From positions 1 to 27,397 of the forward strand of contig JANPJS010000281.1 of assembly GCA_031425655.1 (NCBI GenBank): DNA of 27,397 nt, written 5' to 3'. The DNA comes from Abditibacteriaceae bacterium. Its GTDB lineage: Bacteria > Armatimonadota > Abditibacteriia > Abditibacteriales > Abditibacteriaceae. Below the pieces are notes generated by a model that made no database searches, was not told the DNA's origin, and worked only from the letters and a program-made list of their open reading frames with translations. This document shows positions 2,877 to 19,325 of this stretch, in pieces (position 1 is the first letter of the stretch; each line of letters starts with the position of its first letter). A program made the position numbers and the translations under genes.

Positions 2877-5800
2877 ATGCATCGGTTCTCCCGCTCCGTT
2901 TCCATCGTCGCTTGTTTCTCGCTGTTGGCGTTTTGCGCCGCTTATTCGCCCGCCGCGCGTGGCGCATCGCAGAACGCCGCTTTATTCGCTCCACTGCGCG
3001 TTTTAGCCGGCTTTTTGGGCCTGACTGCGCCCGTTTTGCCGCAAAAGCCGCAAAAAAACATAGCCGCGAAGCCGCAGACGCGCCCGATACGTTTGGCTGC
3101 CGCGCCGCCAACAGGCATCGGGCCGCGCGTGCAAACCTTCACAGTCAACGATACCGGCGATAGCGGCGATGCCACCACCACCGATGGCGTTTGCGACATT
3201 GATCCGACTTCGGGAGGTTGCACGCTGCGCGCGGCGATTGAGCAGGCCAACGCAACGCCGGGCGCCGATATTATTCAGTTCGCCATTTTCGGCACGCCCG
3301 GCGGAGAGCAAACCATCGCTCCCACGTCGCCGCTGCCGATCATTACCGAACAAGTCACCATCAACGGATACACGCAAGATGGCGCCAGCGCCAACACAAG
3401 CACCGGCACTGTGCTTAATACTTCGCTAAAAATTGTCTTGGACGGCACGAGCGCAGGCACCGGTGCTGACGGTTTGACGATAAGCAGCGCCTCCAACTGC
3501 GTCATCAAAGGCTTGAATATTCGCAATTTCGACGATGCCGGCGTCATCATTGATGGTTCGAGTGCGAGTGGCAATACAGTCGAAGGCTGCTTTATCGGCA
3601 CGACCTCAGGCGGCACGAGCGCACTTGCCAATAAAACCGGCATCGCAGTAACGGGCAGCGCGCTAAATAACACCATAGGCGGCACCACGGCAGCGTCTCA
3701 CAACGTCGTCTCAGGCAACATCGGCAACGGCATCACCACGGACAACGGCTGCAATAACAATACGCTGCGGGGCAATTATATCGGTATCAACGCGGCGGGA
3801 ACGACGGCAGTGGCCAATGGCGGCCACGGTGTGCGTTTAAGCTCGATCGGCAACACCGTGTCGGATAACGTCATTTCGGGCAACACCGGCACCGGCCTCC
3901 GCGTATTGGGCGACGGCGCAGCGGGCACCGCGACTATTATTATTCAGGGCAACATTATCGGCCTGAACGCGACGGCAGCCGCCAAAGTGCCGAACGATAA
4001 CGGGCTGTTTATCAACAACCGCGATAACGTAACGGTTGGCGGTCTGTCCACGGCTTTACGGAATACGATTTCCGGTAATACGCGGGAAGGGATTCTCGTC
4101 AGTAATTTCAGCACCGGCAACAGCGTTACGATTCAAGGCAACCGCATCGGCAGCAATGCCAACGGAGATACCAATTTAGGTAACGGCGACGATGGCATTT
4201 TCATAGTTGGCGGCACCGGCGACCAAATTCTCAGCAACCCCATCGTCGGCAACGGCGGCAACGGTATTGAAGTCGCAACTTCCACCGGCGTTGTCATTCA
4301 GCAGAACAATCTTGGTGTTCCGGGCAATGGAAACACGCTTGCGGGTGTATCACTCGTCACTGCAGCTCAAAACACCGTGATAGGCGGCGCCTTTAACGAC
4401 AGCACACCCGGCGGCGAAGGCAACCTCATCGCGGGCAACCGAACCGGCGTTAGCGTTTTTTCCGGCTCCAACGATGCCGTCGGCAACACCATTCGCGGCA
4501 ACACAATTCAGGACAATACGGAACTGGGTATCAACCTTGACGGCGACGGAACCAGCGGCGACGACGTGACGGCCAATGACGATGACCTGTCGGGCGCCAC
4601 CGACGACGACGATACCGGCAACAACAATCTGCAAAACTTTCCGAATATCACTTCGCTTGCGGGCAACAACATCATCGGCAACTTCCATTCGACGCCGGGC
4701 AAAAGCTTCGTTTTGGACTTTTACAGAAACGTCACCCCCGACTCCTCCGGTTTCGGCGAAGGCGAAACGCTGGTGACCAGCCAGCCGGTGACCACCGATG
4801 CCAACGGCGACGCCAACTTTTCGTTCGCGGCGGGCGCGGCGATAGGCAGCGATACCATCACCGCGACGGCAACGCGCACTTCGGCGACGGATGCTACCGG
4901 CACGCGCGGCGACACCAGCGAGTTTTCCGCCGCCGTCGGCGCCGTGCAAAGCTTCACAGTCAACTCGTCAGCCGATACCAACGACGGAGCCTGCAACGCC
5001 ACCAACTGCACGCTGCGCGAAGCCATCAACGCCGCCAATTCCAGCAGCGGCGCCGATATTATTCAATTCGCCATTTCCGGCACGCCCGGCGTTGCGCAAA
5101 CCATTTCGCCCACGTCGCCGCTGCCGATTATCAGCGAAGCCGTGACCATTGACGGCAGTATGCAGCCCGGCTTTAGCGCCACGCCGCTGATCGTGCTGAG
5201 CGGCCAAAATTCTGGAGTGCGCCCGCCCACCAGCTTCGCGGCGGCGCTGCAAATCACGGCGGACAACTGCATAGTGCGCTCTCTGTGCTTCAATAATGGC
5301 TTTCCTGGCGGCATCGAAATTTCCGGCGTCTCAGGCAATGCTCTGGCGAGCAACAACAAAGTCGAGGGCTGCTTCTTCGGCACCAATGCGGCGGGCACGG
5401 CGGCTTCCACACTGAGCGGCCCCGGCATTTCGCTCAGTGATGGCGGCGCGGCGGGCAATGGCGCCACCAATAACATCATCGGCGGCACAACCGCCGCGCA
5501 GCGCAACATCATTAATACCAACAAGCCGAACAGTGGCTTCGGCATTGATATTGAAGGCGACAATACCAGCGGCAACCGCGTCATCGGCAACTTCATCGGC
5601 ACCAACGCGGCGGGAACAGGCGCCATCGGCAGCGCTCACGGCATTGGAATCAGCGCCGGCGCGCACGACAACCTCATCGGCGGCACCACGGCAGCCGAGC
5701 GCAACATCATTTCCGGCAACGACACCGGCGTTTTGATTTACAGCAACGCCAACACGATTCAGGGCAATTACATCGGCACCGACGTTACCGGCAACGCGGC

Positions 5801-8800
5801 CTTAGCGAACACCAATGAGGGAGTTTCGCTGGATGCCGGCGCCGCCGGAAACATCATCGGCGGCACGGCGACCACACCGGGCAGCGGACGCGGCAACGTC
5901 ATTTCCGGCAACGGCGGCCCCGGCGTGGAAATCATCGGACGCAGCTTCGGAACCGGCGCTTTTTCCGCCAATAACATCGTGCAGGGCAACCTGATCGGCC
6001 TCAAAGCCAATGGCGGCGCTTTAGCAAACGCATTCGGCGTGGCGGTGACATTGGGCGCGAACGGCAACCGCATTGGCGGCACCACTGCCGGTCAGGGCAA
6101 CGTGATTTCCGGCAACACATCCGACGGCATTCATTTCTCCGATGCCGGCACCAACAACAACACGGTTCAAGGCAACTTCATCGGCACCAACACAGCGGGC
6201 ACCGGCCCTCTGGGCAATGCCAACGGTGTATTTTTGGGTTTCGATTCGCAAACCAATACCATTGGCGGCACGACCCCGGCGGCGCGCAACATCATCAGCG
6301 GCAACAATGGCGACGGCGTGCAGTTTCCCAATGGCTCTGCCGTAAATAACCTCGTGCAGGGCAACTTCATTGGCCTGAACGCAGCGGGCACGGCAGCCAT
6401 CGCCAACACTGGCGCGGGCGTTACCATCGGCAACGGTTCCAACACCATCGGCGGCGCGGTGGCGGGCGCGGGCAACGTCATTTCGGGCAACACCGGCCAC
6501 GGCGTGCAGTTCAACAACAGCGGAGCCTCCAACACTATCGCCGGCAACTTTATCGGCACCAATGCGGCGGGCACGGCGGACATCGGCAACGGCGGCGACG
6601 GCGTTTCCCTCCGAGGTGGTGGCGGCAGCAACGTCATCGGCGGCACGACTGCGGCGGCGCGCAACGTCATTAGCGGCAACGATGGCAACGGCGTCGGTGT
6701 CACATTCCCCAGTAACACGATTCTCGGCAATTTCATCGGCACCAATGCGGCTGGCACTGCCGCGTTGGGCAACACGCTGGCCGGGGTGCGGCTGCAAGGC
6801 TCCAGCGGCAACATTATAGGCGGCGGCACGGCCAGCGCCCGTAACATTATTTCGGGCAACACAGAGGATGGCGTTCGGCTTACGCTGAACGGAATAACCA
6901 ATACGCGCAATGCCCGCATTGAGGGCAATTTTATCGGCACGGACGTGAATGGCACAGGGGATTTGGGCAACGGGCGCCACGGCATCAATGCCGACGGCGC
7001 CGTAATCACCGACATCGGCAGCGATTTACGCAACGTCATTTCCGGCAACGCGCAAAGTGGCATAGCTATTTCGGGCGATAGCCGTGGCACCTATGCGGGC
7101 AATTTCATCGGCGTGGACGCAAGCGGCAACGTGGCATTGCCTAACTCGGTTGGCATTTTCGTTCAGACCACGTCCAGCCAACAAATCATTGGCGCGGCGG
7201 GCGCAGCGGGCCGCAACGTTATTTCCGGCAACACCAACACCGGTGTTTTGGTGCGCGGCGCGAACTCCAATGCCACCATCGTCAACAACCTCATCGGTTT
7301 GGGCGCCGATGGCACGACGGACGTGGGCAACACGCTGAGCGGCGTTTTGCTGGACGGCGGCGCCAGCGGCAACGCGGTTGGCGGCGGCACCGGCTTGGGC
7401 AACGTCATTTCCGGCAACGGCGGCGGCGTGCGAATCGAAGGCGCCGGCACTAACAACAGAGTTCAGGGCAACATCATCGGGTTGGCGCAGGACGGCGCCA
7501 CGATTCGCCGCAACGACGCGGCAGGGATCAATGTAATCGGCACGGCCAGCACGGACATCGGCGGCATTTCTGCGCCGCTGCGTAACATCATCTCCGGCAA
7601 CGGCGCGGGCATTGTGCTGGACGCTGGAACAACCGCCACTTTCCTCCTCTCCAACTTCATCGGGACCGACATCACCGGCGCGCTGGATCGCGGTAACGAC
7701 GCCGACGGCATCAGCATCAGCAATTCGTCGAATAACACCATCGGCGATGCGGTGGCAGGCACCAACAACGTGATTTCCGGCAATGGCGGCCCCGGCGTTC
7801 ATATCTTCACCTTCGGCGGCGGCACCGCGACCGGCAACAAGATTTACGCCGCCCGCATCGGCACCGGCGCGGCGGGCGCGAGCGTGCAAATTCCCAACAC
7901 CGGCGAAGGCGTACTGATTGATTCCGGCGCCGCCAACAACAGAGTCGGCGATGGCTCCAACAGCCTTGCGAACATCATCGCGTTTAACAACAGTGCGGGC
8001 GTGCGTGTCCCAACGGGCGCGGGCACCGGCAACCAGATCACGCGCAATGCGATTTTCAGCAACGCCGGCCTCGGCATTGACCTCGGCGCCAACGGCATCA
8101 CGGGCAACGACCTCGGTGACGGCGACAGCGGCGCCAACAATTTGCAGAATTTCCCGACTATCACCAGCGTAACGCCGAGCGGCACCAATGTCTTCATCAA
8201 CGGCACGCTCGACAGCGCACCCGGCTCCTACACCATTGAAGTATTCCGCAACACGAGCGCCGACCCATTGGGCAACGGCGAAGGCGAGATTTTCGCCGGC
8301 TCGGCAACCAGCACGGTGCCAACCGCCGGATTAGGCACCTTTAGCCTCCAAGTGCCGGGCACGGTCAGCGACTCCTACACCGCGACGGCCACACGCGCCG
8401 CTGCGCCATTCGACACCAGCGAATTTTCCGTCGCCGTGAGCGGCGCGCAAACTTTCACGGTCAACTCGGCAGCCGATACGGACGACGGCACCTGCACTGC
8501 CGCTGTGAACGGCTGCACGCTGCGCGAAGCCATCAACGCCACGAACGCCAACACCGGCGCCGATACGATTTCGTTCGAGATTCCTGGCGCGGTGGGCGCG
8601 GTTCGCACCATCACTCCGGCTACGGCTCTGCCCATCATCAGCGAAGCCGTCACCATTAACGGCTATTCGCAATCGGGCAGCAGCGCCAATACCCTCGCCG
8701 TCGGCAACAACGCGGTATTGCTGATCCAAATCAGCGGCAACGGCGTGAACGGCGACGGCTTAAGATTCAACGGCGGCAACAGCCTCGTGCGCGGCTTGAT

Positions 8801-11800
8801 TATCAACGGTTTCACCACACCAGATGCCGCGGCCATTCTCTTCTCCAGTTCCAACAACACGGTTTCCGGCTGCTTCTTAGGCACCAATGCGGCAGGAACC
8901 GCAGTGGCAGGCAACGAAAAGGGCGTCCGTATTGGCGGCTTCGGCCTCCCCATCAGCGACGACAACACCGTTGGCGGCGCCTCCGCCGGGGCGCGCAACG
9001 TCATTTCGGGCAACACCGACGAAGGCGTTCTCATCGTCTTCGGCCCAGAGCGTAACACGGTGCAAAACAACTACATCGGCACGGATAAAAACGGCACGGC
9101 GGCTGTGGCCAACGGCGAAGGCGTAGTGCTGGCCATTAGTCCCAACCACCGCGTTTTGGGCAACGTGATTTCCGGCAATCAGGGCAGCGGTATGCGGATT
9201 GATACCGACGGCCTTAATCCCAGCGATGCGTCGGGCCACGTCATTCGGGGCAATTTCATCGGCACCAACGCCAGAGGCACGGCGGCCATTCCCAACGCCA
9301 CCGGCATTTTCATGTCCTCCGGCATCAACAACACCATCGGCGGACTGCTGGCGGGTGAAGCCAACGTGATTTCCGGCAACACGGGCGATGGTGTCGCCAT
9401 GCAGGGCAGCAATACCAATACTATTCAGGGCAACATTATTGGCCTCAACGCGGCGGGCACGGCCAAAGTCGCCAACGGCGGCAACGGCCTGAATCTTACG
9501 CTCAATAGCGTAAACACCATCGGCGGCGCCTCAGCCGCCGCGCGCAATGTCATTTCGGGCAACGGCGCGGCGGGCCTTCGCATTGATCGAGGCAGCGAAT
9601 TCGTGCGCGGCAACTTCATCGGCACCAATGCGGCGGGCACGGCGGCTTTGGGCAACACCGGAGTGGGCGTGCTGATTGTTGAGGGTGCGGGCAACATCAT
9701 CGGCGGCGAAGCAGCCGGAGAACGCAACGTGATCTCCGGCAACGGCGCGAGCGGCATCGTGGTGGGCGGCACCGGCTTCAACGGCAATTCGATTTTCGGC
9801 AACTTCATCGGCACCAACGCGGCGGGCACGGCGGGCTTGGCCAACGCCATCGGCATCACCGTGCAGGAGAGCACACGCAATAACGGCATCGGCCTCGTCA
9901 CGAATTTCTTCAGCGGCGCCGTTACAGGCCGCGCCAATCTCATCGCCTTCAACACCGGCGACGGCGTGCGCCTGCAGGACACAGCAACCGGCAACACTGT
10001 GCGCGGCAACGCCATCCACAGCAATGGACGTTTGGGCATCAACTTAGTGGGCGGAATCGGCGAACTCGGCAACGGCGTCACGCCCAACGACACGGACGAC
10101 GCCGACACCGGCCCGAATAATTATCAAAATTCCCCAGTTCTAAGCAACGTCCGGCAAAGCGGCGGCAACACCTTGGTGGATGTCTCGCTTAACAGCGTGG
10201 GCGGCAGCAATTACCTGCTGGATTTTTACACCAACGCAACGGCTGATCCATCGGGCAATGGCGAAGGCCAAACTTTCGTTGGCACCGACAAGCTCACCAT
10301 TCCCGGCGGTGCGACGACCGCCAGCAAAACCGTCACGTTGACCGGCAACTTGACCAGCAGTTTCCTCACCGCGACGGCCACTTTGGAATTCGGCAACGAT
10401 ACCAGCGAATTTTCCGTCGCCGTGAGCGGCGCGCAAACTTTCACGATCAACTCGACAGCCGATACGGACGACGGCGCCTGCACCGCCGCTGTGAACGGCT
10501 GCACGCTGCGCGAAGCCATCAACGCCACAAACGCCAATGCGGGCGCCGATACGATTTCGTTCGCCCTTTCCGGCACCGGCGTGCAAACCATTAGGCCAAG
10601 CACGCCCCTTCCGGCCATCACCGACCAAGTCACTCTGGACGGCTACTCGCAGCCTCTGGCAACAGCCAATACGTTGGTTAATGGTTTCGATGCCAATATC
10701 CTCATCGCGCTCAGCGGCGAAAACATCGTGGGCGGTGCCAGTGGTCTGGTTGTTCAGGCGAATAACAGCCTCATCAACGGCTTGATTATTCATCGTTTTC
10801 AATCCACGGCTTTAGTTTTCAACGGCAATAACAATCGCTTGGAAGGCTGCATGATTGGGCCGGACAGCGCAGGAACGGGCAACTTCAGCAACGCCAGCAA
10901 CGGCGAGGGCGTGCGCGTTTCCGGCACCGGCAATATTATCGGCGGCGCTTTCGCCGGCAGGCGCAATATTATCAGCGGCAATCGTCTGGACGGCATCAGC
11001 ATCAGCGGCGCGGCGGTGGCCGGCAATAACCGCGTCGAAGGCAACTTCATCGGCACGACCAAAACCGGCTTGGCACCTTTGGGCAACGGGCGCACCGGCG
11101 TGAGCATCAGCGGCCTGACCAACAACACCATCGGCGGCGGCGCCACGGCTTTCCGCAACATCATCAGCGGCAACCAGTCCGGCATCGTGATTTTCACCGC
11201 CAGCAACTTGGTGCAAAGCAATTACATCGGCGTGGGGGTAAACGGAACGACCGCTATCGGTAATCGCGGACGGGGCGTTTTTGTGCAAACCGGCAGCAAC
11301 AACTTTATCGGTGGCGCAGCGCCCGGCAAGGGACAGCCGCGCGGCAACGTGATCTCCAATAACAGTGCCGAAGGCGTTGCCACCAACGGCGCCAACAGCA
11401 CGCGCATTCAAGGCAACATCATCGGTTTGAATGCGCCGGGCACAGCGCTTGCGCCCAACGGCACCGCCGGAATATCGCTGCTTTCCAACAACAACAGCAT
11501 CGGCGGCGCTAACCCCGTTCAAGGCAACATTATTTCCGGCAACGGCACCGTAACCGTGCCCGCCGACGGCCTTCGCATTGACGGCAACAACAACACTGTC
11601 CTGCGTAATTTGATTGGTATCGGCGTCAATGGCTCGACACCGCGCGGCAATACGGGACACGGTATTTTCGTCAATACCTGCAACAACAATGTCATCGGCA
11701 GCAGCACGGCGAGCAACAGCATCGCTCATAACGGCAAAGACGGCGTGCGCGTTACCGAATTTGGCGGCAACGGCGTGGGCAACGCCTTGCTGATCAACCA

Positions 11801-14800
11801 GATATTCAACAACGGGGGCCTCGCCATCAATCTGGTGGGCGGCGCCGGAGAAAATGCGGCGGGCGTCACGCCCAACGACCAAACGACCGCGCCTTTCGAT
11901 AGCGACACCGGCCCGAACAACCTGCAAAACTTTCCGGTTTTGACGGCGGCGCCGGGCGGCACACGCATTCAAGGCACGCTGACCAGCACGCAGAATACTC
12001 TCTTTACGCTTTCGTTTTACGATAACGCCACCGCCGACCCGTCGGGCTTTGGCGAGGGCCAACGCTTCCTCAAGCTGGAAAACGTGACAACCGACGCTTC
12101 GGGCGTGGCGATCTTTGATTTCCCGATAGCTCCGGCTTTGCCTGTGGGTCGTCTCGTCACGGCAACGGCCACCAGCATCACGACCAACAACACCAGCGAA
12201 TTTTCAAAGGCTGTGCGAGCCACGCAAACTTTCACGGTCAACACCACCGACGCCGACGATGACGGCGCCTGCGACATCTTGTCTTCAACCACCGATTGCA
12301 CGCTGCGCGAAGCCATCAACGCCGCCAATGCGGCTGCGGGCGTCAACACGATTAATTTCGCTATTTCCGGCACCGGCGTGAAAACCATCGCGCCGACTTC
12401 GGCACTACCGACCATTACCGGGCCGACTCTTATTGACGGCGCCTCACAGCCGGGCTTCGTGCCGGGAAATGCGCCGCTCATCCGACTCGACGGCTCTGGG
12501 GTTGGGCAGGATGTGGTAGGCCTGACCATTACGGCGGCTAACTGCGCGGTGCGAATGCTCAACATCGCCGACTTTGCCGCCAGCGGCATTCGCCTCACCG
12601 GGACGGGAGCCACCGGAAATCGCATCGAAGGCTGTTACATCGGAACCAATGCCGCCGGCACCGCCGCCAATCCCAACGGCGTCAACGTCAGTGCGGGCGA
12701 GCCTGCCGGCAAAGGCGGCGTGCTCATTGACACCAACGCACGCAATAACGACATCGGCAACGGCGGCAGCGGCAACGCCACGCTTCGCAACGTCATTTCC
12801 GGCAATATCGGCAGAGGCATCGAGATCAACAACTTCGCTGCTGCCAACACGAAAGATAACGTCGTAGCAGGCAATTACATCGGCCTCAAAGCCGATGGCC
12901 TGAGCGCTTTGCCCAACGGCGGCGCCGGTGTCGAACTCGCCTTCCAAACGTCGGGAAACAAAATCGGTTTGGCCGGCGCGAACAACGGCAACGTCATCAG
13001 CGGCCATAACCTCGTTCCTGCCTCCGGCGTGAGCATAGGTCAAGGGTGTTTCAACAACATCGTGGTGAATAACTTCATCGGCACCAACAAAAACGGCACG
13101 GGCGCTGTTCCCAACCAGAACGGCATCAGCATCGCCTTTAACGCGCACGATAACATCATCGGCGGCACCACCGCAGCCCAGCGCAACGTCATTTCCGGCA
13201 ACGCACAGGCGGGCATCGCCTTTGGCGACGGCGCCAACAACAACCGCGTTTTCGGCAACTTCATCGGCACGAAGAACGATGGCACAACTGATCTGGGCAA
13301 CGGCGGCGGCGGCGGCATTTCGATTGGCGCCGGCGGGCCGGCCTTAACCGGCGCCTTCAATAACATCATCGGCGGAACGGCGGCGGGACAAGCCAACGTT
13401 ATCGCCTTTAACGGCGGCGATGGTGTGACAATTATCGGTGACGGTGCCACGGTTGCGACGGGCAACAGCATTCGCCGCAACTCGATTTTCAGCAACGGAC
13501 AACTGGGCATTGACCTTATCGGCGGGCTGGAAAACAATCAGGTGACCAAAAATGACAGCGGCGACGGCGATAACGGCGCCAACCGCCTGCAAAATTATCC
13601 TGAGCTGACTTCGGCGGTTAACGAAGTCGCCGGAACACGGGTGAGCGGCACGCTGAACGGCCCGGCCAACACCTTATTCAACATCGAATTCTTCGATAAC
13701 GTCACACCCGATTCGTCCAGCTTCGGTCAAGGCGAAAGGTTCGTCTCGGCGCTCAACAATTTCGATACCGGCTCGACCGGCACCGGCACTTTCAATGTCG
13801 TTATTCCCAGCGTGCCGGACGGCCACTTCATCTCGGCCACGGCCACCTCAATCGGCGGCGACACCAGCGAATTTTCAAAGGTGCTGGAAGTCGGCGCCGT
13901 GAGCAACCTGCCAGAGCTTTCCATCAACAATGTGCGCGTCACCGAAGGCAGCGGAGCCAACGCCATCTTCACCGTTACGCTCTCGCAAGCGTCCTTAACT
14001 GCAGTGACGGTGAACTTCACCACGGCCAATGGCACCGCCATCGCGCCCGGCGATTACACCGCCAAAACCGGCACGTTGAATTTCAGCGCCGGAGAACTTA
14101 CGAAAACGATTAGCGTGGCCGTAGCCAACGACGCTGCTGTCGAACCGGACGAAACCTTCAAGGTCAATCTCTCAGCGCCATCGGGAGCCACCATCGCCGA
14201 CGCAACCGGCTTAGGCACAATTGACGACGAAGCAACGCCGAATTTTGTCGTTGATACTAATTCGGACGCCAATCTGACGGCTTGCACGGCGGCGGCAGGC
14301 GATTGCTCGCTGCGCGGCGCGATTAACAACGCCAACGCCGACGCAGCGCCGCAAACCATCGCCTTCGCTATTCCCGGCAGCGGCGTGCCGACAATTATCC
14401 TCACTTCGCCGCTGCCGGCCATCACGCAGCCTCTGACCATTGACGGCTTCAGCCAAAACCCGGCGACGGGCGGGCCACAGGTGGAAATCAACGGCAACGG
14501 TCGCAACTACGGCGTGACCCTTCAAGGCGCGAACAGCGCGGTCAAGGGCTTGATTATCAACCTGTGCAACCTTGCCGGCGTGCGGATTACGGGAAGCGCG
14601 GCTCAAAACAACAACGTGCAGGGCTGTTACATCGGCACCAATATCACCGGCACCAGCCTGCTGCCCAACCAGGACGGCGTGGAAATTTCCGCTGGCGCGA
14701 AGAATAACGTCCTCGGTGGCACAGGCACGGCGCGCAACCTGATTTCCGGCAACTTCGGGCGCGGCGTCTTTATCACCGGCGCCGGCACGACCGGCAACCA

Positions 14801-17666
14801 GTTGACGGGCAACTTCATCGGCACCAGAAGAGACGGCCTGTCCGCGTTGTCCAACGGCACGGGCGTCGAAATTTCCGGCGGCGCCGGCAGCAATGCCATC
14901 GGCGGCACCGGCGCACGCAACTTTATCAGCGGCAACGACCGGGGCGGCGTCTTCATCAACGGCGCCAACGATAACAAAGTGCAGGGAAATTACATCGGTG
15001 TCAACGTCAACGGCGCCGCCGCTCTACCCAACAGTGGCAGTGGCGTCGAGATTTCAGGAGGGGCGAAAAACAACCTGGTCGGAGGCGGCGCTTCCGCCAC
15101 ACGCAACGTCATTGCGGGCAACACAGGGCGAGGCGTGTTGATTAGCGGCCTCGGCTCCGACGGCAACAAGGTGCAGGGCAACTACATCGGCACGAACGCC
15201 ACAGGCGCGGCGGCGCTTGCCAATGCCTCCGATGGCCTTGCGGTTGCGTCCGGCGCCAAGAATAACGTCATCGGAGGCGCCACGAGCGGTTCCGGCAACC
15301 TGCTCAGCGGCAATCGGCTTTCCGGCATCAGCCTCGAAGGCGACACCACCGCCAGCAATACCGTCATCGGCAATCGCATCGGCGTGGCTGCCAACGGCAC
15401 CGCGTCTTTGCCTAACAACCAGCACGGCGTCAGCATCGCCGGCGCCGACAACAACGTCATCGGCGGGACGGGCACCAGTTCCAACCTCATCGCCAACAAC
15501 AAGGCCGACGGCGTCGCGGTTACCACCGCCGGCGGCCCGGCAACGGGCAATCGCATTCGCGGCAACCGCATTTTCAATAACACCGGACTGGGCATTGACC
15601 TCGCCGACAACGGCGTGACCCTCAACGATGCCGCCGATGCCGACAACGGCCCGAACGGGCTGCAAAACTTCCCGACGATCACCGACGCCGGCCAGTTTGG
15701 CGCCAATCAGCCCCTGCAATTGTCGGGCACCTTCGCAAGCGCGCCGGGCCGTGACTTCATCATTGACGTTTACGCCGGCGCTGCCCAGGACCCGACGCTG
15801 TTCGGCGAAGGCGAAAAATACATCGGCACCTTCAACCTCACGACGGATGCCGGCGGCGCGGCTAATTTTGCGCGCTCGGTTGGCGACACCACGCTTGCCG
15901 ATTTGAGCAACCAATTCATTACCTTAACCGCGACCGACTCGCTGAGCGGCAATAGCAGCGAGTTCTCGAAAGCCTTCAAAGTGCCGGCAACTTCCGGTCT
16001 GGTGATTACGCCGCCGGGCGTGACGCCGCCGACGCCGATCACTTTGCTGCCGTGCGAGCAACAGCAATTTAGCGCCAGCGTGGCCGGTGTGCCGGTCGCG
16101 GTGCGCTGGACTGCCAGCGGCGGCACCATCACGCCGTCCAACGCCGGCACAGTGCCGGTAGCGACCATTGACTACAAGGCGGGCAGCGCCAGCAGCTTTA
16201 CTCTCACTGCCACGCCGCCCTCCGGCGCGCCGGTCAGCGTGACGATCAACGTGAGCGCGTCTCCCGATAACTTCTTTGGCTGGGGCTTCAATGCCTACGG
16301 AAACGTCGGCGACAACACCACGAGCCAACAAAACGCGCCCGTTGACGTGAGTCTGCCGCCTCTGCCGACGATTATCGCCGCCGGAGGCAGCCACAGTCTC
16401 GCGGTTTCCGACGGCAAACTCTTCGCGTGGGGCTTGAATCAAGACTTCCAGTTGGGATTGGGCGATCAAAGCAATCGCACCGTGCCGACGCAGGTTCCCG
16501 GCGTGGACGGCACCAAAGTCACGGCTTTGGCGTGCGGATTCTATCACTCACTGGCTGTCGTCAACGGCGAAGTTTTCGCGTGGGGTTACAATCGCTATGG
16601 GCAGAGCGGACAGCCGCCCGGCACCGGTGATCCGCACGTTTTGGTTCCCACACGGGTGCCGAATCTGAGTAATGTCGTCGAAGTGTCTGCGGGCGTTTAC
16701 TTCAGCCTCGCGCGCACCAGCAACGGCGACGTTTTCGCTTGGGGCAGCAACCTTTACGGACAATGCGGCCCGGCTGCAAGCGGAACCGTGCAGGTCACGC
16801 CGGTGAAAGTCACGCTGAGCGGCAGCGCCTCGGCAATTGGCGCCGGCGCCGCGCATAGTGCGGCTTTGGTCGGCGGACAAGTGTTTGCCTGGGGTCTGAA
16901 CGAAACCGGACAACTGGGCAATGGCACCAGCGGAGTCGGCCTGCAAACCGCGCGTCCGGTGCGCGCCGGAACGCTCAGCGGCATGACGCTTTTGGCGGTT
17001 GGCTACGCGCATACTTTGGCCGGCAATGCGACGACGGTGTTCAGTTGGGGCAACAACGGCAAGAGCGAACTGGGTCGCAACGGAACGACCAACTCCGCCA
17101 CACCCGGCGCCATTTCCGGCCTCAGCGGCGTGACGAAACTGGCCGCCGGCTCGGCGCACAACTTGGCCGTGAGGTCTGATGGCTCGTTGTGGAGTTGGGG
17201 TTCTAACGATTTCGGCAATCTGGGGCTTGGCGATACGGCTAACCGCGCCACGCCACAGCAAGTCACGCAGTTGCGCGGCGTGCGCGACATCGCCGCCGGC
17301 TACGCTCACAGTTTCGCGGTCGCCAAAGAAGACCTGTGTGCGTCTCCAGCCGGGCCTCCTGACGCGCTTCGTGCCTCGGTTCAGGACAACGAAACAGAGA
17401 AGTCGGTAGAAAAGCCGTTCTCCGACAGCGGTTCAGCGTTCAGTTCCAGCGACAGCATCGTTTTAGCTCTCGCGCCGTCGGACAAGGCGCCGACCTTCTT
17501 CCGCGTGGCCGTCAATGGCCGCGATGTCGAAGTGCAAAGCGTGCAAAAATCTCAGGACGCCACCACGCTGCTCTTGCCGACGGGCACCTTAAAAGCGGGC
17601 GACCAGATTGTTGTCACTTGGAACAGCTTAGGCGGCCTTCAAAGCCTGACATTGCAAGCCGAATAA
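2877..17666 (+). CDS. giant secreted repetitive surface protein / putative adhesin (4929 aa): 6x [CSLREA domain + right-handed parallel beta-helix + Ig-like cap], Calx-beta, Ig-like, 7x RCC1 repeats, C-terminal domain
   Basis: N-terminal signal peptide. Six FTVN...D...C...C(T/S)LR(E/A/G)AI motifs start at about 3135, 4950, 8450, 10435, 12225 and 14240. There are many GNxIGTNAAG / RNVISGN repeats, and each module ends NxxQNxP...TATAT...SEFS. A Calx-beta domain (ELSINNVRVTEG...TANGTA..GDY...EPDETF) lies at about 13910-14225. Seven (F/W)xWGxNxxxxxG RCC1 blades lie at about 16270-17325. Confidence 0.92.
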   Translation: MHRFSRSVSIVACFSLLAFCAAYSPAARGASQNAALFAPLRVLAGFLGLTAPVLPQKPQKNIAAKPQTRPIRLAAAPPTGIGPRVQTFTVNDTGDSGDATTTDGVCDIDPTSGGCTLRAAIEQANATPGADIIQFAIFGTPGGEQTIAPTSPLPIITEQVTINGYTQDGASANTSTGTVLNTSLKIVLDGTSAGTGADGLTISSASNCVIKGLNIRNFDDAGVIIDGSSASGNTVEGCFIGTTSGGTSALANKTGIAVTGSALNNTIGGTTAASHNVVSGNIGNGITTDNGCNNNTLRGNYIGINAAGTTAVANGGHGVRLSSIGNTVSDNVISGNTGTGLRVLGDGAAGTATIIIQGNIIGLNATAAAKVPNDNGLFINNRDNVTVGGLSTALRNTISGNTREGILVSNFSTGNSVTIQGNRIGSNANGDTNLGNGDDGIFIVGGTGDQILSNPIVGNGGNGIEVATSTGVVIQQNNLGVPGNGNTLAGVSLVTAAQNTVIGGAFNDSTPGGEGNLIAGNRTGVSVFSGSNDAVGNTIRGNTIQDNTELGINLDGDGTSGDDVTANDDDLSGATDDDDTGNNNLQNFPNITSLAGNNIIGNFHSTPGKSFVLDFYRNVTPDSSGFGEGETLVTSQPVTTDANGDANFSFAAGAAIGSDTITATATRTSATDATGTRGDTSEFSAAVGAVQSFTVNSSADTNDGACNATNCTLREAINAANSSSGADIIQFAISGTPGVAQTISPTSPLPIISEAVTIDGSMQPGFSATPLIVLSGQNSGVRPPTSFAAALQITADNCIVRSLCFNNGFPGGIEISGVSGNALASNNKVEGCFFGTNAAGTAASTLSGPGISLSDGGAAGNGATNNIIGGTTAAQRNIINTNKPNSGFGIDIEGDNTSGNRVIGNFIGTNAAGTGAIGSAHGIGISAGAHDNLIGGTTAAERNIISGNDTGVLIYSNANTIQGNYIGTDVTGNAALANTNEGVSLDAGAAGNIIGGTATTPGSGRGNVISGNGGPGVEIIGRSFGTGAFSANNIVQGNLIGLKANGGALANAFGVAVTLGANGNRIGGTTAGQGNVISGNTSDGIHFSDAGTNNNTVQGNFIGTNTAGTGPLGNANGVFLGFDSQTNTIGGTTPAARNIISGNNGDGVQFPNGSAVNNLVQGNFIGLNAAGTAAIANTGAGVTIGNGSNTIGGAVAGAGNVISGNTGHGVQFNNSGASNTIAGNFIGTNAAGTADIGNGGDGVSLRGGGGSNVIGGTTAAARNVISGNDGNGVGVTFPSNTILGNFIGTNAAGTAALGNTLAGVRLQGSSGNIIGGGTASARNIISGNTEDGVRLTLNGITNTRNARIEGNFIGTDVNGTGDLGNGRHGINADGAVITDIGSDLRNVISGNAQSGIAISGDSRGTYAGNFIGVDASGNVALPNSVGIFVQTTSSQQIIGAAGAAGRNVISGNTNTGVLVRGANSNATIVNNLIGLGADGTTDVGNTLSGVLLDGGASGNAVGGGTGLGNVISGNGGGVRIEGAGTNNRVQGNIIGLAQDGATIRRNDAAGINVIGTASTDIGGISAPLRNIISGNGAGIVLDAGTTATFLLSNFIGTDITGALDRGNDADGISISNSSNNTIGDAVAGTNNVISGNGGPGVHIFTFGGGTATGNKIYAARIGTGAAGASVQIPNTGEGVLIDSGAANNRVGDGSNSLANIIAFNNSAGVRVPTGAGTGNQITRNAIFSNAGLGIDLGANGITGNDLGDGDSGANNLQNFPTITSVTPSGTNVFINGTLDSAPGSYTIEVFRNTSADPLGNGEGEIFAGSATSTVPTAGLGTFSLQVPGTVSDSYTATATRAAAPFDTSEFSVAVSGAQTFTVNSAADTDDGTCTAAVNGCTLREAINATNANTGADTISFEIPGAVGAVRTITPATALPIISEAVTINGYSQSGSSANTLAVGNNAVLLIQISGNGVNGDGLRFNGGNSLVRGLIINGFTTPDAAAILFSSSNNTVSGCFLGTNAAGTAVAGNEKGVRIGGFGLPISDDNTVGGASAGARNVISGNTDEGVLIVFGPERNTVQNNYIGTDKNGTAAVANGEGVVLAISPNHRVLGNVISGNQGSGMRIDTDGLNPSDASGHVIRGNFIGTNARGTAAIPNATGIFMSSGINNTIGGLLAGEANVISGNTGDGVAMQGSNTNTIQGNIIGLNAAGTAKVANGGNGLNLTLNSVNTIGGASAAARNVISGNGAAGLRIDRGSEFVRGNFIGTNAAGTAALGNTGVGVLIVEGAGNIIGGEAAGERNVISGNGASGIVVGGTGFNGNSIFGNFIGTNAAGTAGLANAIGITVQESTRNNGIGLVTNFFSGAVTGRANLIAFNTGDGVRLQDTATGNTVRGNAIHSNGRLGINLVGGIGELGNGVTPNDTDDADTGPNNYQNSPVLSNVRQSGGNTLVDVSLNSVGGSNYLLDFYTNATADPSGNGEGQTFVGTDKLTIPGGATTASKTVTLTGNLTSSFLTATATLEFGNDTSEFSVAVSGAQTFTINSTADTDDGACTAAVNGCTLREAINATNANAGADTISFALSGTGVQTIRPSTPLPAITDQVTLDGYSQPLATANTLVNGFDANILIALSGENIVGGASGLVVQANNSLINGLIIHRFQSTALVFNGNNNRLEGCMIGPDSAGTGNFSNASNGEGVRVSGTGNIIGGAFAGRRNIISGNRLDGISISGAAVAGNNRVEGNFIGTTKTGLAPLGNGRTGVSISGLTNNTIGGGATAFRNIISGNQSGIVIFTASNLVQSNYIGVGVNGTTAIGNRGRGVFVQTGSNNFIGGAAPGKGQPRGNVISNNSAEGVATNGANSTRIQGNIIGLNAPGTALAPNGTAGISLLSNNNSIGGANPVQGNIISGNGTVTVPADGLRIDGNNNTVLRNLIGIGVNGSTPRGNTGHGIFVNTCNNNVIGSSTASNSIAHNGKDGVRVTEFGGNGVGNALLINQIFNNGGLAINLVGGAGENAAGVTPNDQTTAPFDSDTGPNNLQNFPVLTAAPGGTRIQGTLTSTQNTLFTLSFYDNATADPSGFGEGQRFLKLENVTTDASGVAIFDFPIAPALPVGRLVTATATSITTNNTSEFSKAVRATQTFTVNTTDADDDGACDILSSTTDCTLREAINAANAAAGVNTINFAISGTGVKTIAPTSALPTITGPTLIDGASQPGFVPGNAPLIRLDGSGVGQDVVGLTITAANCAVRMLNIADFAASGIRLTGTGATGNRIEGCYIGTNAAGTAANPNGVNVSAGEPAGKGGVLIDTNARNNDIGNGGSGNATLRNVISGNIGRGIEINNFAAANTKDNVVAGNYIGLKADGLSALPNGGAGVELAFQTSGNKIGLAGANNGNVISGHNLVPASGVSIGQGCFNNIVVNNFIGTNKNGTGAVPNQNGISIAFNAHDNIIGGTTAAQRNVISGNAQAGIAFGDGANNNRVFGNFIGTKNDGTTDLGNGGGGGISIGAGGPALTGAFNNIIGGTAAGQANVIAFNGGDGVTIIGDGATVATGNSIRRNSIFSNGQLGIDLIGGLENNQVTKNDSGDGDNGANRLQNYPELTSAVNEVAGTRVSGTLNGPANTLFNIEFFDNVTPDSSSFGQGERFVSALNNFDTGSTGTGTFNVVIPSVPDGHFISATATSIGGDTSEFSKVLEVGAVSNLPELSINNVRVTEGSGANAIFTVTLSQASLTAVTVNFTTANGTAIAPGDYTAKTGTLNFSAGELTKTISVAVANDAAVEPDETFKVNLSAPSGATIADATGLGTIDDEATPNFVVDTNSDANLTACTAAAGDCSLRGAINNANADAAPQTIAFAIPGSGVPTIILTSPLPAITQPLTIDGFSQNPATGGPQVEINGNGRNYGVTLQGANSAVKGLIINLCNLAGVRITGSAAQNNNVQGCYIGTNITGTSLLPNQDGVEISAGAKNNVLGGTGTARNLISGNFGRGVFITGAGTTGNQLTGNFIGTRRDGLSALSNGTGVEISGGAGSNAIGGTGARNFISGNDRGGVFINGANDNKVQGNYIGVNVNGAAALPNSGSGVEISGGAKNNLVGGGASATRNVIAGNTGRGVLISGLGSDGNKVQGNYIGTNATGAAALANASDGLAVASGAKNNVIGGATSGSGNLLSGNRLSGISLEGDTTASNTVIGNRIGVAANGTASLPNNQHGVSIAGADNNVIGGTGTSSNLIANNKADGVAVTTAGGPATGNRIRGNRIFNNTGLGIDLADNGVTLNDAADADNGPNGLQNFPTITDAGQFGANQPLQLSGTFASAPGRDFIIDVYAGAAQDPTLFGEGEKYIGTFNLTTDAGGAANFARSVGDTTLADLSNQFITLTATDSLSGNSSEFSKAFKVPATSGLVITPPGVTPPTPITLLPCEQQQFSASVAGVPVAVRWTASGGTITPSNAGTVPVATIDYKAGSASSFTLTATPPSGAPVSVTINVSASPDNFFGWGFNAYGNVGDNTTSQQNAPVDVSLPPLPTIIAAGGSHSLAVSDGKLFAWGLNQDFQLGLGDQSNRTVPTQVPGVDGTKVTALACGFYHSLAVVNGEVFAWGYNRYGQSGQPPGTGDPHVLVPTRVPNLSNVVEVSAGVYFSLARTSNGDVFAWGSNLYGQCGPAASGTVQVTPVKVTLSGSASAIGAGAAHSAALVGGQVFAWGLNETGQLGNGTSGVGLQTARPVRAGTLSGMTLLAVGYAHTLAGNATTVFSWGNNGKSELGRNGTTNSATPGAISGLSGVTKLAAGSAHNLAVRSDGSLWSWGSNDFGNLGLGDTANRATPQQVTQLRGVRDIAAGYAHSFAVAKEDLCASPAGPPDALRASVQDNETEKSVEKPFSDSGSAFSSSDSIVLALAPSDKAPTFFRVAVNGRDVEVQSVQKSQDATTLLLPTGTLKAGDQIVVTWNSLGGLQSLTLQAE
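8412..8577 (+). repeat. intragenic direct repeat copy A (module 2/3 junction)
   Basis: 166 bp with about 9 mismatches (by manual comparison) to 10398-10563. The offset of 1986 bp is in frame. Confidence 0.85.
10398..10563 (+). repeat. intragenic direct repeat copy B (module 3/4 junction)
   Basis: About 95% identical to 8412-8577. Confidence 0.85.
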
Positions 17667-17778: not shown

Positions 17779-17811
17779 TCTAAAAACCAGTTTAAAAATC
17801 AGTCTGAAAAG

Positions 17812-17868
17812 TCCCCTCCCCTTGCCGTCGGGTGCCCTTTGGGCAGGAGGGAGGGTTAGGGTGGGGTT
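17812..17868 (+). repeat. CCCCTCCCC...GGGAGGG-TTAGGGTGGGG-type palindromic repeat, copy 1 (loop carries an extra ~15-nt motif)
   Basis: tcccctccccttgccgtc[gggtgccctttgggc]aggagggagggttagggtggggtt aligns to copy 2 once the bracketed segment is removed. Confidence 0.65.
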
Positions 17869-18019
17869 CTGGCGTTTCCCGAACCCCCTGCCCAAAAGTG
17901 TAAAGAATGTCCTGTCAAAAGCTGTAAACCTTGTCTTGTCATCATACAACGGGGAAGGGGGTGGAAACACTTCTGCTTCGGTAAAAGTAATAATGGATTC
18001 GGGGAAAATGCGACGGGAC

Positions 18020-18065
18020 TCCCTTCCCCTTAGCCGTTTCAAGGGGAAGGGCCGGGGATGGGGTT
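18020..18065 (+). repeat. CCC(T/C)TCCCC...GGGGAAGGG-CCGGGGATGGGG-type palindromic repeat, copy 2
   Basis: The stem cccttcccctt / aaggggaaggg is followed by the G-rich tail ccggggatggggtt, which abuts the ISAs1 target site. Confidence 0.65.
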
Positions 18066-18073
18066 TGGGCAGG

Positions 18074-19325
18074 CAGGGCAAACGCATGAGAATTATGGGG
18101 CAGCCAGGATACTAAGCATATAATCCTCGTTCCAGCCCGACATTTTCCGGCGGCCCTTGATTCCACATTTGGTTTTGGTGTCTTGACGGAGCAAATTAAG
18201 CGTCAATTTGCGCAATGTGGCGAGATTTTGCGGGGCGTGATCTCGACGAACCCGACAATCATCTTCGCCAAAAGCCATTCGCCCAAAGGGCACCCGAAGA
18301 CCCAATGGAGACTATTTTCAATGCCCCAATGTGCCCGAATAGCGTGCATCAAACGCGCCGCTTGGGGTGCCAGGCTACTCAAATAATAGTGGCGCGTCAC
18401 CGTCGGCACAATTTGACCTCCCACAGGCACGCCTTCGGGCGGCAGAACACTCCGCTCCCGCTCCATCATGACCACACTTTGCAAACCCTGCCACTGCCGC
18501 AGGGCTTGAGGCCATTCCTCTGGCGTGGTTTGCAGACAAAAACAGCGTCTAACCTCGTGACGACCATGCCCCCATTCACCCGTAACACCAGAATCGTCGC
18601 TCAATTGGGTTAAACCGCCCGGTTGACCTCGACACCAGGCAAAGTAATCGCGCACGTCTTCATAGAGATGAAGATGATTGGCCTTCAAAGCCAACACATA
18701 ATCGCCACCACGTTCTTGAACTTTGGCGGCAATGGATTTTTGGCTGTTGAGCGCATCGGCTGTCACGATGCGCCCTTTTAAATCCAACATCTCTAACAAC
18801 AAGGGCACCGCCGTCATCTCATTGCTTTTTTGTTCGACTTCTTGCTGGGCCAGCACCAAGCGTGCTTGCGCGGCCCACACCGACACCAAATGCAAAGCGC
18901 CTTGACCCGTGGCTGTATCGAACGAACGGCGCATCGTTTTGCCGTCAATAGCCAGAATCTCACCTTTTGTGGACTGTTGCAAATGCTGTGTCCACGCCAT
19001 AAAGCAGGCTTCAAAGGCTTTGGCGTCCAGCAAGGAAAAGAGGCGATTGAAGGTATCGTGACTGGGGATACCGTGCGGCAATTCCAATCCTAAACGTTCC
19101 CGCAACCATGTTTCTTTGGCTAAACCGTAGTCCTCGAAGTCCACAAAACCTTCGGCCCCGCTGAGCGTGGCGCACAGGGCAATGCATAACACGTCAATGA
19201 GGCGATGGTTAAAGGCATGATTGGCGCGGCGTGGGTCGGGAACACGCTCGAATATCTCGAAAATTAGCATGAACCCAGTTTCTCATGAACCTCTCCCCTA
19301 ACTTATTTCTCATGCGATTGCCCTG
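18074..19325 (-). mobile_element. ISAs1-family insertion sequence, complete ends
   Basis: The terminal IRs are cagggcaaacgcatgagaa (18074-18092) and ttctcatgcgattgccctg (19307-19325), matching at 18/19. A 10-bp target-site duplication tttgggcagg flanks the element at 18064-18073 and 19326-19335. Confidence 0.95.
18093..19270 (-). pseudogene. ISAs1-family DDE transposase, frameshifted near the C-terminus
   Basis: Motifs PDPR, GIPSHDTF, AIDGKT, KSNE, DAL, KANH, HGRHE and HWGIENSLHWV are present. The expected tail (MAFGEDDCRVR...NLATLRK...GWNEDY) continues in another frame (stop at 18093) after extra bases at about 18279-18298. Confidence 0.9.

Follow-up and report, generated by a model that had tools for sequence, protein, structure and literature searches.

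The window analysed here covers positions 1 to 27,397 of contig JANPJS010000281.1 of an Abditibacteriaceae bacterium (Armatimonadota; assembly GCA_031425655.1), and it raises the question of how one short hairpin came to stand at two sites with unrelated flanks, one inside a palindromic repeat and the other inside the transposase gene of an ISAs1 insertion sequence (IS). An initial annotation, made from the letters of the window, had described a 17-nt motif and proposed that an ultra-small sequence of 14-16 nt is written into DNA in trans. The 17-mer TCGGGTGCCCTTTGGGC was indeed located, in two exact copies, at 17828-17844 (+) and 18281-18297 (-). The leading T, however, belongs to the flank at both places, and the unit begins at C. 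The comparisons set out below make it very probable that the unit is a non-autonomous mobile hairpin of 19-20 nt that replaces a five-base patch of its target (NNNNG in the analysed genome) with itself. The idea of a very small sequence written in trans into unrelated sites was thus upheld, while its size had to be raised to 19-20 nt and the claim of a plain insertion given up, since five target bases are replaced. Throughout, G000 denotes the analysed genome (327 contigs), G001 onward the other genomes searched, and L-numbers the loci fetched from outside. The features of the window that bear on the question are these:

17829..17848, + strand: 20-nt element CGGGTGCCCTTTGGGCAGGA, replacing TTAAG of the host repeat, net +15, with 13 empty sisters
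18278..18296, - strand: 19-nt element CGGGTGCCCTTTGGGCGAA, replacing N-GAY-G of the ISAs1 L-D-V codons, net +14, with a frameshift
17800..17880 (ends approximate), + strand: host palindromic repeat resembling repetitive extragenic palindromes (REP-like), of a multi-copy family struck at several positions genome-wide
18017..18066, + strand: empty repeat of a related subfamily, with target sites GGCCG and GGATG that are filled in other copies
18074..19325, - strand: host ISAs1, single-copy, with 17-bp inverted ends at 18074-18090 and 19309-19325
19270 to about 18093, - strand: ISAs1 transposase frame (Pfam PF13808, PF01609), broken by the 19-mer

At the ISAs1 site the gap between the codons for HWV and MAFGED measures 20 bases, as had been claimed, and the net change of +14 is borne out because intact relatives read HWVLDVAF(G/D/E)ED, a pattern present in 12 of 12 fetched intact loci showing the segment (from G002, G003, G012 and G021). 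Intact ISAs1 copies are without the motif. The window copy is otherwise intact apart from the 19-mer and is 84% identical to the insert-free ISAs1 copies of G003, and contigs of another sample have 14-15 bases fewer at this site. A Logan contig of run X1 matches 18036-19285 with 0 differences, but it is not independent support, since that run may be the source of the DNA; all sequencing runs examined were contigs, not raw reads, and no RNA run was listed among those with the sequence. At the other site the empty form, ccgt[TTAAG]ggga, is found in 13 sisters within G000. The repeat at 18020-18065, which had been taken as the empty sister of this copy, proved to be related but of a different subfamily.

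The extent of the unit was defined from the genome-wide alignment of copies. A C precedes the core GGGYGCCCTYTGGGC in 261 of 277 copies and conservation extends 3-4 bases past the core, so that the unit measures 20 nt in one form (…GGGC AGG N) and 19 nt in the other (…GGGC GG N) and can be written CGGGYGCCCTYTGGGC(A)GG-N, i.e., 5'-C GGG Y GCCC YYT GGGC (A) GG N-3'. It folds into a 5-bp hairpin with tails of 4 nt and 3 nt. Among 324 copies, a set in which at most one core mismatch was allowed and which itself limits the variation seen, invariance reaches at least 96% at 13 core positions, variation is concentrated at positions 5, 11, 17 and 20, and both the hairpin and the 5' tail are strongly constrained. 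Such constraint suggests, as a reading of the alignment, something resembling a protein-binding site. The same element variants recur in two phyla, and the element nests in itself at L199 and L219.

The abundance of the element was then compared with chance, as the initial annotation had proposed. The core occurs 277 times in G000, on 151 of 327 contigs, rather than at the two positions of the window only; four core 15-mers have 26, 101, 117 and 33 copies against order-5 Markov expectations of 0.02-0.08, which is far above chance. A shuffle test was weak within the window alone, and it is the genome-wide count that decides. CGGGYGCCCTYTGGGC was found in 22 of 26 other genomes of the family, with up to 137 copies, and in 29 of all 61 genomes searched, whereas a reversed-pattern control gave 2 matches over the 61 genomes and 0 in all 27 family genomes. 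Three relatives assembled in 1-3 contigs each (G011, G012 and G009) hold 12-35 exact copies. Many of the 19-mer matches from outside bear the name of the family itself; beyond it, the 19-mer was found in records named Thermomicrobiales, Herpetosiphonaceae, Ardenticatenaceae and Chloroflexia (at least 87 loci), and four Chloroflexota genomes have 60, 67, 67 and 74 copies; the distribution across that phylum is patchy, with matches in 21 of 201 genomes and at least 10 copies in 4 (centre genome counted). Metagenomes contributed at least 123 loci and viral contigs 5 (L001-L005), the latter in phage portal, protease and neighbouring genes. In L001-L005 the element stands in frame in portal and prohead-protease genes, and also near a capsid gene. 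In the plasmid collection searched, a single weak and unrelated match was obtained. Our literature search, whose coverage omits most subscription journals and bioRxiv supplements, returned no description of the motif or of the five-base replacement rule.

The replacement rule was derived by comparing filled sites with empty sisters in G000, using a search without selection for G. In a first pass over 229 distinct contexts, 80 of which had sisters, the net change was +15 in 58 and +14 in 8, the remaining contexts being tandem-repeat or distant matches. In a second pass, in which 163 of 249 contexts had usable sisters, five bases were replaced in 134, six in 15, four in 4 and some other number in 10. 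The fifth and last target base was G in 114 of 114 junction-by-variant events and in 78 of 79 junction classes, and still in 121 of 126 when every matching five-mer was retained, compared with 17-64% G at the other tabulated positions. The other four target bases and the flanks showed no consensus except a scarcity of A at the first two. The alignment of empty with filled sites, which had been suggested at the outset, thus shows five bases lost and no target duplication, with a sharp left junction and a variable right junction anchored on the target G. As to footprints of the swap, the empty sisters of 10 families hold family-like five-mers, bar 2 loosely anchored matches.

The last base of the element, which stands in the place of the target G, was A in 63, G in 26, T in 24 and C in 1 of the 114 events, which are not independent of one another, since repeat families share history. 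T was found as the last base only before a purine (24 of 24 events in G000), and in 87 genome loci and 5 viral ones the copies that end in T likewise precede a purine, in 16 of 16 cases. The last base does not follow the internal variants of the element, and 28 of 62 junctions bear more than one variant. When copies were clustered by flank, 36 families were obtained among 260 copies, a clustering that both merges and splits families. Between co-directed genes of G000 no transcription-strand bias was seen (61 sense, 63 antisense), and in G011 a strand bias was weak (22 of 31, p = 0.03, the boundary having been set post hoc). In other lineages the same core carries varied tails (GGAT, GGCG, AGCA, AGCG, AGTA and others). 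Among the outside loci, 76 of 212 contexts had any sister, often of another organism, and the rule is less firm in these lineages because empty sites there were mostly deduced from other organisms or from repeat periodicity.

The landing sites of the element are mostly intergenic and repetitive. In G000, 290 of 308 copies lie outside genes as called by our own simple gene caller, and the flank word is present at least 10 times for 262 of 300 copies versus 1138 of 3000 intergenic G controls. The hosts are palindromic REP-like repeats and short tandem repeats, and several positions are used within one repeat. The clear non-repeat targets in G000 are mobile DNA, namely the window ISAs1 and an IS1 gene, together with a tRNA-Arg gene in a tRNA array. 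Outside G000 the element lies within IS3, IS256, IS701-like, ISAs1 and Tn3 genes; ISAs1 and Tn3 are Pfam calls, and the other three are what we take the translated motifs to indicate. The same ISAs1 L/R-D-V codon was struck in the window, L111, L033 and L086, with four different tails and in two phyla, while L209 and L227 were struck at other ISAs1 positions. Host genes are struck in frame as well: in 92 frames scanned, a 4-alpha-glucanotransferase domain was found to hold the element directly, and further copies stand within or between the Pfam domains of LarC, MiaB, ribonucleotide reductase, lipoyl ligase and CarB. The +15 form retains reading frames and so adds five-residue loops to enzymes, and the +14 form knocks out transposases.

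Several further observations concern these hosts. The tRNA array, at G000:C61:85-845, has seven tRNA genes; in its tRNA-Arg(TCG) gene, for which no second copy was called in G000, the element forms an interruption between the D arm and the anticodon stem. Two tRNA genes at L215 are interrupted likewise. Heptamer and octamer tandem repeats (e.g., TTTTGAG, TCATCCC, TCGTCAC) are very abundant in G000 with diverse flanks, and several of them host the element, one family standing in frame within genes (C51, C150, C202, C267). A repeat family with an AGATGG…CCCGAAGGG…GA head bears the element at one position in Opitutales and metagenome contigs (L031, L046, L302, L312, L150, L158, L165, L203, L230); an Rfam search of 12 outside loci, L031 and L046 included, gave no match. 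G000 also has CRISPR arrays at C194:15975-16706 and C240:12890-13988, with repeats presumably of a type I-E-like kind, and an element copy lies at 15864, close to one end of the C194 array. Another over-represented word, CCCCGCAGGTGCGG, proved to be a CRISPR repeat and unrelated to the element.

A long sequence that starts like the motif was considered as a parent element, and it turned out to be an IS110 transposon inserted into the motif. At nine contig ends of G000 the left half of the motif runs into one long sequence, and at ten the right half exits another, as follows:

C65, C66, C70, C88, C136, C170, C189, C212 and C220: contig ends with the left half, IS110 end
C15, C23, C58, C71, C97, C101, C154, C205, C248 and C302: contig ends with the right half, IS110 end
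L110-L118 and L281-L297: IS110 outside loci

The DEDD/Tnp transposase was identified by PF02371 on a fragment at G000:C101, with full frames in the relatives L111, L114 and L118. The IS110 splits the motif at CT in 10 of 10 G016 copies, with the CT core on both sides. In its non-coding end, GGGTGCCCT equals the left half of the motif and CCCAGAG is the reverse complement of the right half; judged by its sequence, this end is arranged like bridge-RNA target guides. Between G005 and G006 the guide words differ in step with the target. The G005 relative has different guide words and occupies a native repeat; the G006 IS110 is lodged in a motif inside ISAs1, in a genome with only one intact motif copy. 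The group was detected in 6 of 27 family genomes by DNA and in 6 of 27 by protein, 7 together, and it was not found at the cut-off used in G011, G012 and G009. As it is rare and not found in these three well-assembled carriers, the IS110 appears to exploit the element rather than to make it. A predicted RNA-guided transposon aimed at the element in five genomes argues that the element is old, abundant and biological, and makes for a three-level nesting of repeat, element and transposon. The accessible text on IS621-type IS110 elements at REPs (PMC11208160) describes the same CT core, left and right guides matching the target, and repeats as landing sites. The difference lies in the landing site, which here is itself a 19-20-nt mobile element; this is a new target, not a new mechanism.

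We searched for genes that could move the element or supply its template. RAYT-like genes (REP-associated tyrosine transposases) and small GIY-YIG genes are present in G000. Five of the six Y1_Tnp loci of G000 were read, and their flanks contain other repeats and no motif; one of the two small GIY-YIG loci has a palindromic motif derivative in a different, longer repeat upstream, and the other has none. The GIY-YIG profile is present in all 27 family genomes and is therefore uninformative. Neighbour-gene clustering returned only target transposases and housekeeping families. No RAYT, reverse transcriptase (RT) or nuclease gene of the kind proposed to co-occur with the motif could thus be tied to it. 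An RVT_1 match was absent from G000, G001 and G002 and broken in G003, and no group II intron domain V was detected by two patterns. In G179, of which 1.25 of about 1.5 Mb was read, the 40 closest matches to G000 were housekeeping genes rather than a shared mover. A master-template locus was not found, and the copy clusters of G061, G062 and G064, considered as such a locus, are ordinary chromosomal regions with repeats. Argonaute was rejected as mover (1 of 27 genomes, not G000), and RNase P RNA was rejected as source, since only GGGCAGGA and a loose register are in common, which we judged to be chance. The RT of the family was likewise rejected, because it is present in the zero-copy genomes G004, G007 and G025 and gave no tblastn match in G000; its 14 fetched loci have no recurring motif position, with near-matches in 3. 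This RT, of 470-510 aa, lies behind two large conserved genes (L093-L106) in what we take to be the arrangement of HEAT/SWIM type XIII retrons; it has a match in 21 of 27 family genomes, is broken in G003 and was not found in G000, G001 and G002.

We tentatively propose that movement proceeds by trans-acting, single-strand cut-and-join of an element copy. In such a scheme, an enzyme encoded in trans would bind short single-stranded hairpins with fixed tails, and could be HUH/RAYT-like, Ssn/GIY-YIG-like or an unrecognised analogue; it would release a single-stranded element copy. An exposed single-stranded target would be cut just 3' of G and then five bases upstream, and the copy would be joined into the gap. 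Replication would fix the heteroduplex, and in roughly one event in four the last position would retain the target base. DNA that is dispensable and present in many copies (REP-like repeats, IS genes, tRNA arrays, phage genes) would be struck most and would keep copies and ferry them between genomes, and IS110 would secondarily have pointed its bridge RNA at the element. Donors carry no footprint. Cut-and-join is favoured because the element resembles RAYT and Ssn substrates, because such genes are present, and because RT was not found in G000, G001 and G002. Among the mechanisms offered by the initial annotation, an HUH/RAYT-like nuclease in trans may therefore apply, while an excision footprint is unsupported, there being no parent element with these ends, and a template copied by RT sits poorly with the three genomes of the genus richest in the element, in which no RT was found. 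In PMC11893778, SsnA is described as recognising the sequence of a hairpin formed by one strand and cutting at a distance of a few bases, cutting being the only step shown there.

Several results weigh against this account. No mover gene was found, and apart from target transposases the neighbours of the element, in G000 and at about 210 outside loci, include no recurrent protein family; small GIY-YIG genes occur also in the zero-copy genomes G007 and G025. We know of no HUH or Ssn reaction that removes five bases. In G000, 86 of 249 contexts have no usable empty sister, the left target cut is without consensus, hairpins upstream of the targets are slightly in excess but no other structural preference is seen, and a replication-strand bias is absent (66 vs 74, by a weak skew proxy). 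Tails vary widely in other lineages, where some targets end in C (before T), and the 9 copies seen in G179 lie in only two host repeats.

Copying primed at a nick, akin to target-primed reverse transcription or prime editing, is a competitor to cut-and-join, though a less probable one. Here a nuclease would nick the opposite strand beside the target C, and a polymerase would extend the resulting 3' end along a copy of the element made of small RNA or single-stranded DNA; a further nick, at a distance of five bases, would delete the patch. It gives the best fit to the asymmetric junctions, one sharp and one variable, with the last-base counts given above, and it accommodates the variable tails of other lineages and the lack of footprints; R2-type retrotransposition also produces fixed small target deletions. 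RNA-mediated copying has been proposed for yeast GC clusters, according to the accessible part of PMC4478555. It is opposed by the missing RVT_1 match in G000, G001 and G002, the missing domain V and master template, and the presence of the family RT in the three zero-copy genomes, although with G000 in 327 contigs a multi-copy or extrachromosomal RT might be missed. Less probable still is a chemistry of base removal, in which the target G:C is attacked (deaminated or abasic), the element is joined there and the last base comes from non-instructive synthesis. One invariant base is lost with mostly A in its place, T appears only before a purine in both sets of loci, and the geometry corresponds to a cut at the fifth bond 3' of C, as made by UvrC. 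In keeping with the excess of A, PMC4167244 gives dAMP as the nucleotide that E. coli usually inserts opposite an abasic site, but the same text gives dTMP, dGMP and dCMP at <1% with one-base deletions common, whereas here T and G make up 44% and no clear one-base-deletion class is seen. Moreover, the last base is context-dependent (p = 2e-5, for events that are not independent), lineage sorting in repeat families can give the same result, and there is no enzyme candidate.

The remaining explanations deny the element a movement of its own. A few old events could have been multiplied by host repeats, by IS elements and by gene conversion among the copies of a repeat, as the excess of high-copy flanks over intergenic G controls, the confinement of the G179 copies to two repeat families and symmetrised palindromic forms that show conversion would all lead one to expect. 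This is very improbable and largely refuted by at least 62 distinct junctions with unrelated flanks and one rule, by strikes on single-copy genes (ISAs1, IS1 and tRNA-Arg in G000, host enzymes elsewhere), by the otherwise intact window ISAs1 and by the self-nesting of the element. Hitchhiking certainly adds copies, as in G179, where it explains part of the spread because the copies lie in two host repeats, but it is insufficient alone because 62 junctions obey one rule. It is more improbable again that the motif arises as a product of the IS110 bridge recombinase, or as its footprint, the putative guide RNA of that recombinase containing both motif halves. The matching non-coding end and the IS110 in a motif of G006, with its one intact copy, fit that idea; the restriction of the group to 7 of 27 genomes, its not being found in G011, G012 and G009, and a guide without the first C and the tail contradict it, the G005 relative in a native repeat adds nothing, and IS110 excision is scarless in the accessible text of PMC11208160. 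An assembly, adapter or chance artefact was considered because 52 of the 277 copies stand no more than 100 bases from a contig end, as for any repeat. It is refuted, to a negligible residual probability, by dozens of independent assemblies including long-contig ones, by a biological target rule and by IS110 targeting; the motif is not an artefact because it is present in relatives of 1-3 contigs and the reversed control gives 0 in the family.

The closest known relatives of the element are the small dispersed repeats (SDRs) of cyanobacteria, and it works like SDRs and yeast GC clusters, although it cannot be filed as an SDR. The SDR sizes are reportedly in the low twenties of bases. SDR1-8 of Nostocaceae are, in the accessible text of PMC4390886, PMC5861425 and PMC3116915, very small, gene-less, dispersed and mobile by a mechanism left unexplained, and the element resembles them in all of this, its own mobility being evident from filled and empty sites. 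The same text has SDR-like repeats reported only in Nostocaceae and has SDR5 entering at a precise position, between bases 3 and 4 of the HIP1 octamer, whereas the element needs only G, deletes five bases and occurs in several phyla; the HIP1 consensus was not seen at its targets. With REP/REPIN-RAYT and NTS/SRM-Ssn systems, as far as PMC3116915 and PMC11893778 are available, the element shares a short one-strand hairpin, fixed flanking bases, hundreds of mostly intergenic copies and presumably handling by a single-strand nuclease in trans. In the text of those sources REPs bracket their own enzyme gene, and so do SRMs, inverted repeats of 20-50 nt around a small GIY-YIG gene; the element brackets none, no copies flank a cognate RAYT, and it is nested inside such repeats, shorter, enters coding DNA and replaces five bases.

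The yeast mitochondrial GC clusters GC42 and GC18 are, from the accessible text of PMC4478555, likewise tiny GC-rich mobile hairpins with a conserved stem, a variable loop and nesting, and an 18-nt unit of theirs may be mobile. They differ in their 2-3-base target duplication (AG or ACT) and their place in an organelle, the element being bacterial, without duplication and deleting bases. Derivatives of IS200/IS605 share with it single-strand hairpin recognition, the absence of target duplication and one-strand orientation. Such derivatives have two ends and go in 3' of a fixed site of 4-5 bases, with no target base lost; the element, in contrast, has one hairpin and no upstream consensus or conserved tetra- or pentanucleotide, and five bases are lost. 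Nor does it resemble miniature inverted-repeat transposable elements or other DDE-transposase derivatives, since its ends are CGGG and AGGN, its hairpin is internal, no terminal inverted repeats are present, and five bases are lost in 134 of 163 contexts where a target-site duplication would be expected. For a retron or other retroelement, neither a template beside an RT nor an RT where the element is active was found, with assembly gaps in which an RT could have been missed.

The element is among the smallest mobile elements seen. It is rule-bound and smaller than the known very small mobile repeats, and it brings down to about 20 bases the length for which independent spread of a bacterial sequence has been demonstrated. 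Its rule is exact, with five bases out, the last of them G, a net gain of +15 or +14, and one sharp and one variable end; the movement of tiny repeats such as SDRs, REPs and GC clusters thereby becomes directly assayable with short oligonucleotides and a known hot spot. Perhaps, though this is doubtful, a new DNA-writing reaction is at work, in which an enzyme, or an enzyme with a small guide or template, swaps a measured five-base patch for a defined 19-20-nt sequence without homology, double-strand break or duplication. Such a reaction would be active in several phyla, would prefer multi-copy mobile DNA and might disable or tag foreign elements as a host or selfish system. If true, an enzyme able to exchange five bases for a set oligonucleotide, with no need of homology, would merit attention as a tool for editing.

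Sibling elements of 23-24 nt were observed at 24 places in G000 (C101:1549, C306:62632, C73:56826 and C64:46525 among them). Their hairpin is ACCCGC-TT-GCGGGT or GCCCGC-TT-GCGGGC, they have the CGGG start and the GG-N end in common with the 19-20-nt element, and they follow the same five-base rule wherever sisters exist. Perfectly palindromic derivatives of the element stand within hairpin repeats at G000:C253, upstream of a small broken GIY-YIG gene, and at the left end of C62, and were probably made by conversion between arms. In the window itself, a 4929-aa secreted repeat protein with glycine/asparagine-rich repeats and an RCC1-like end is encoded at 2877-17666 (+), just upstream of the host repeat and ISAs1.

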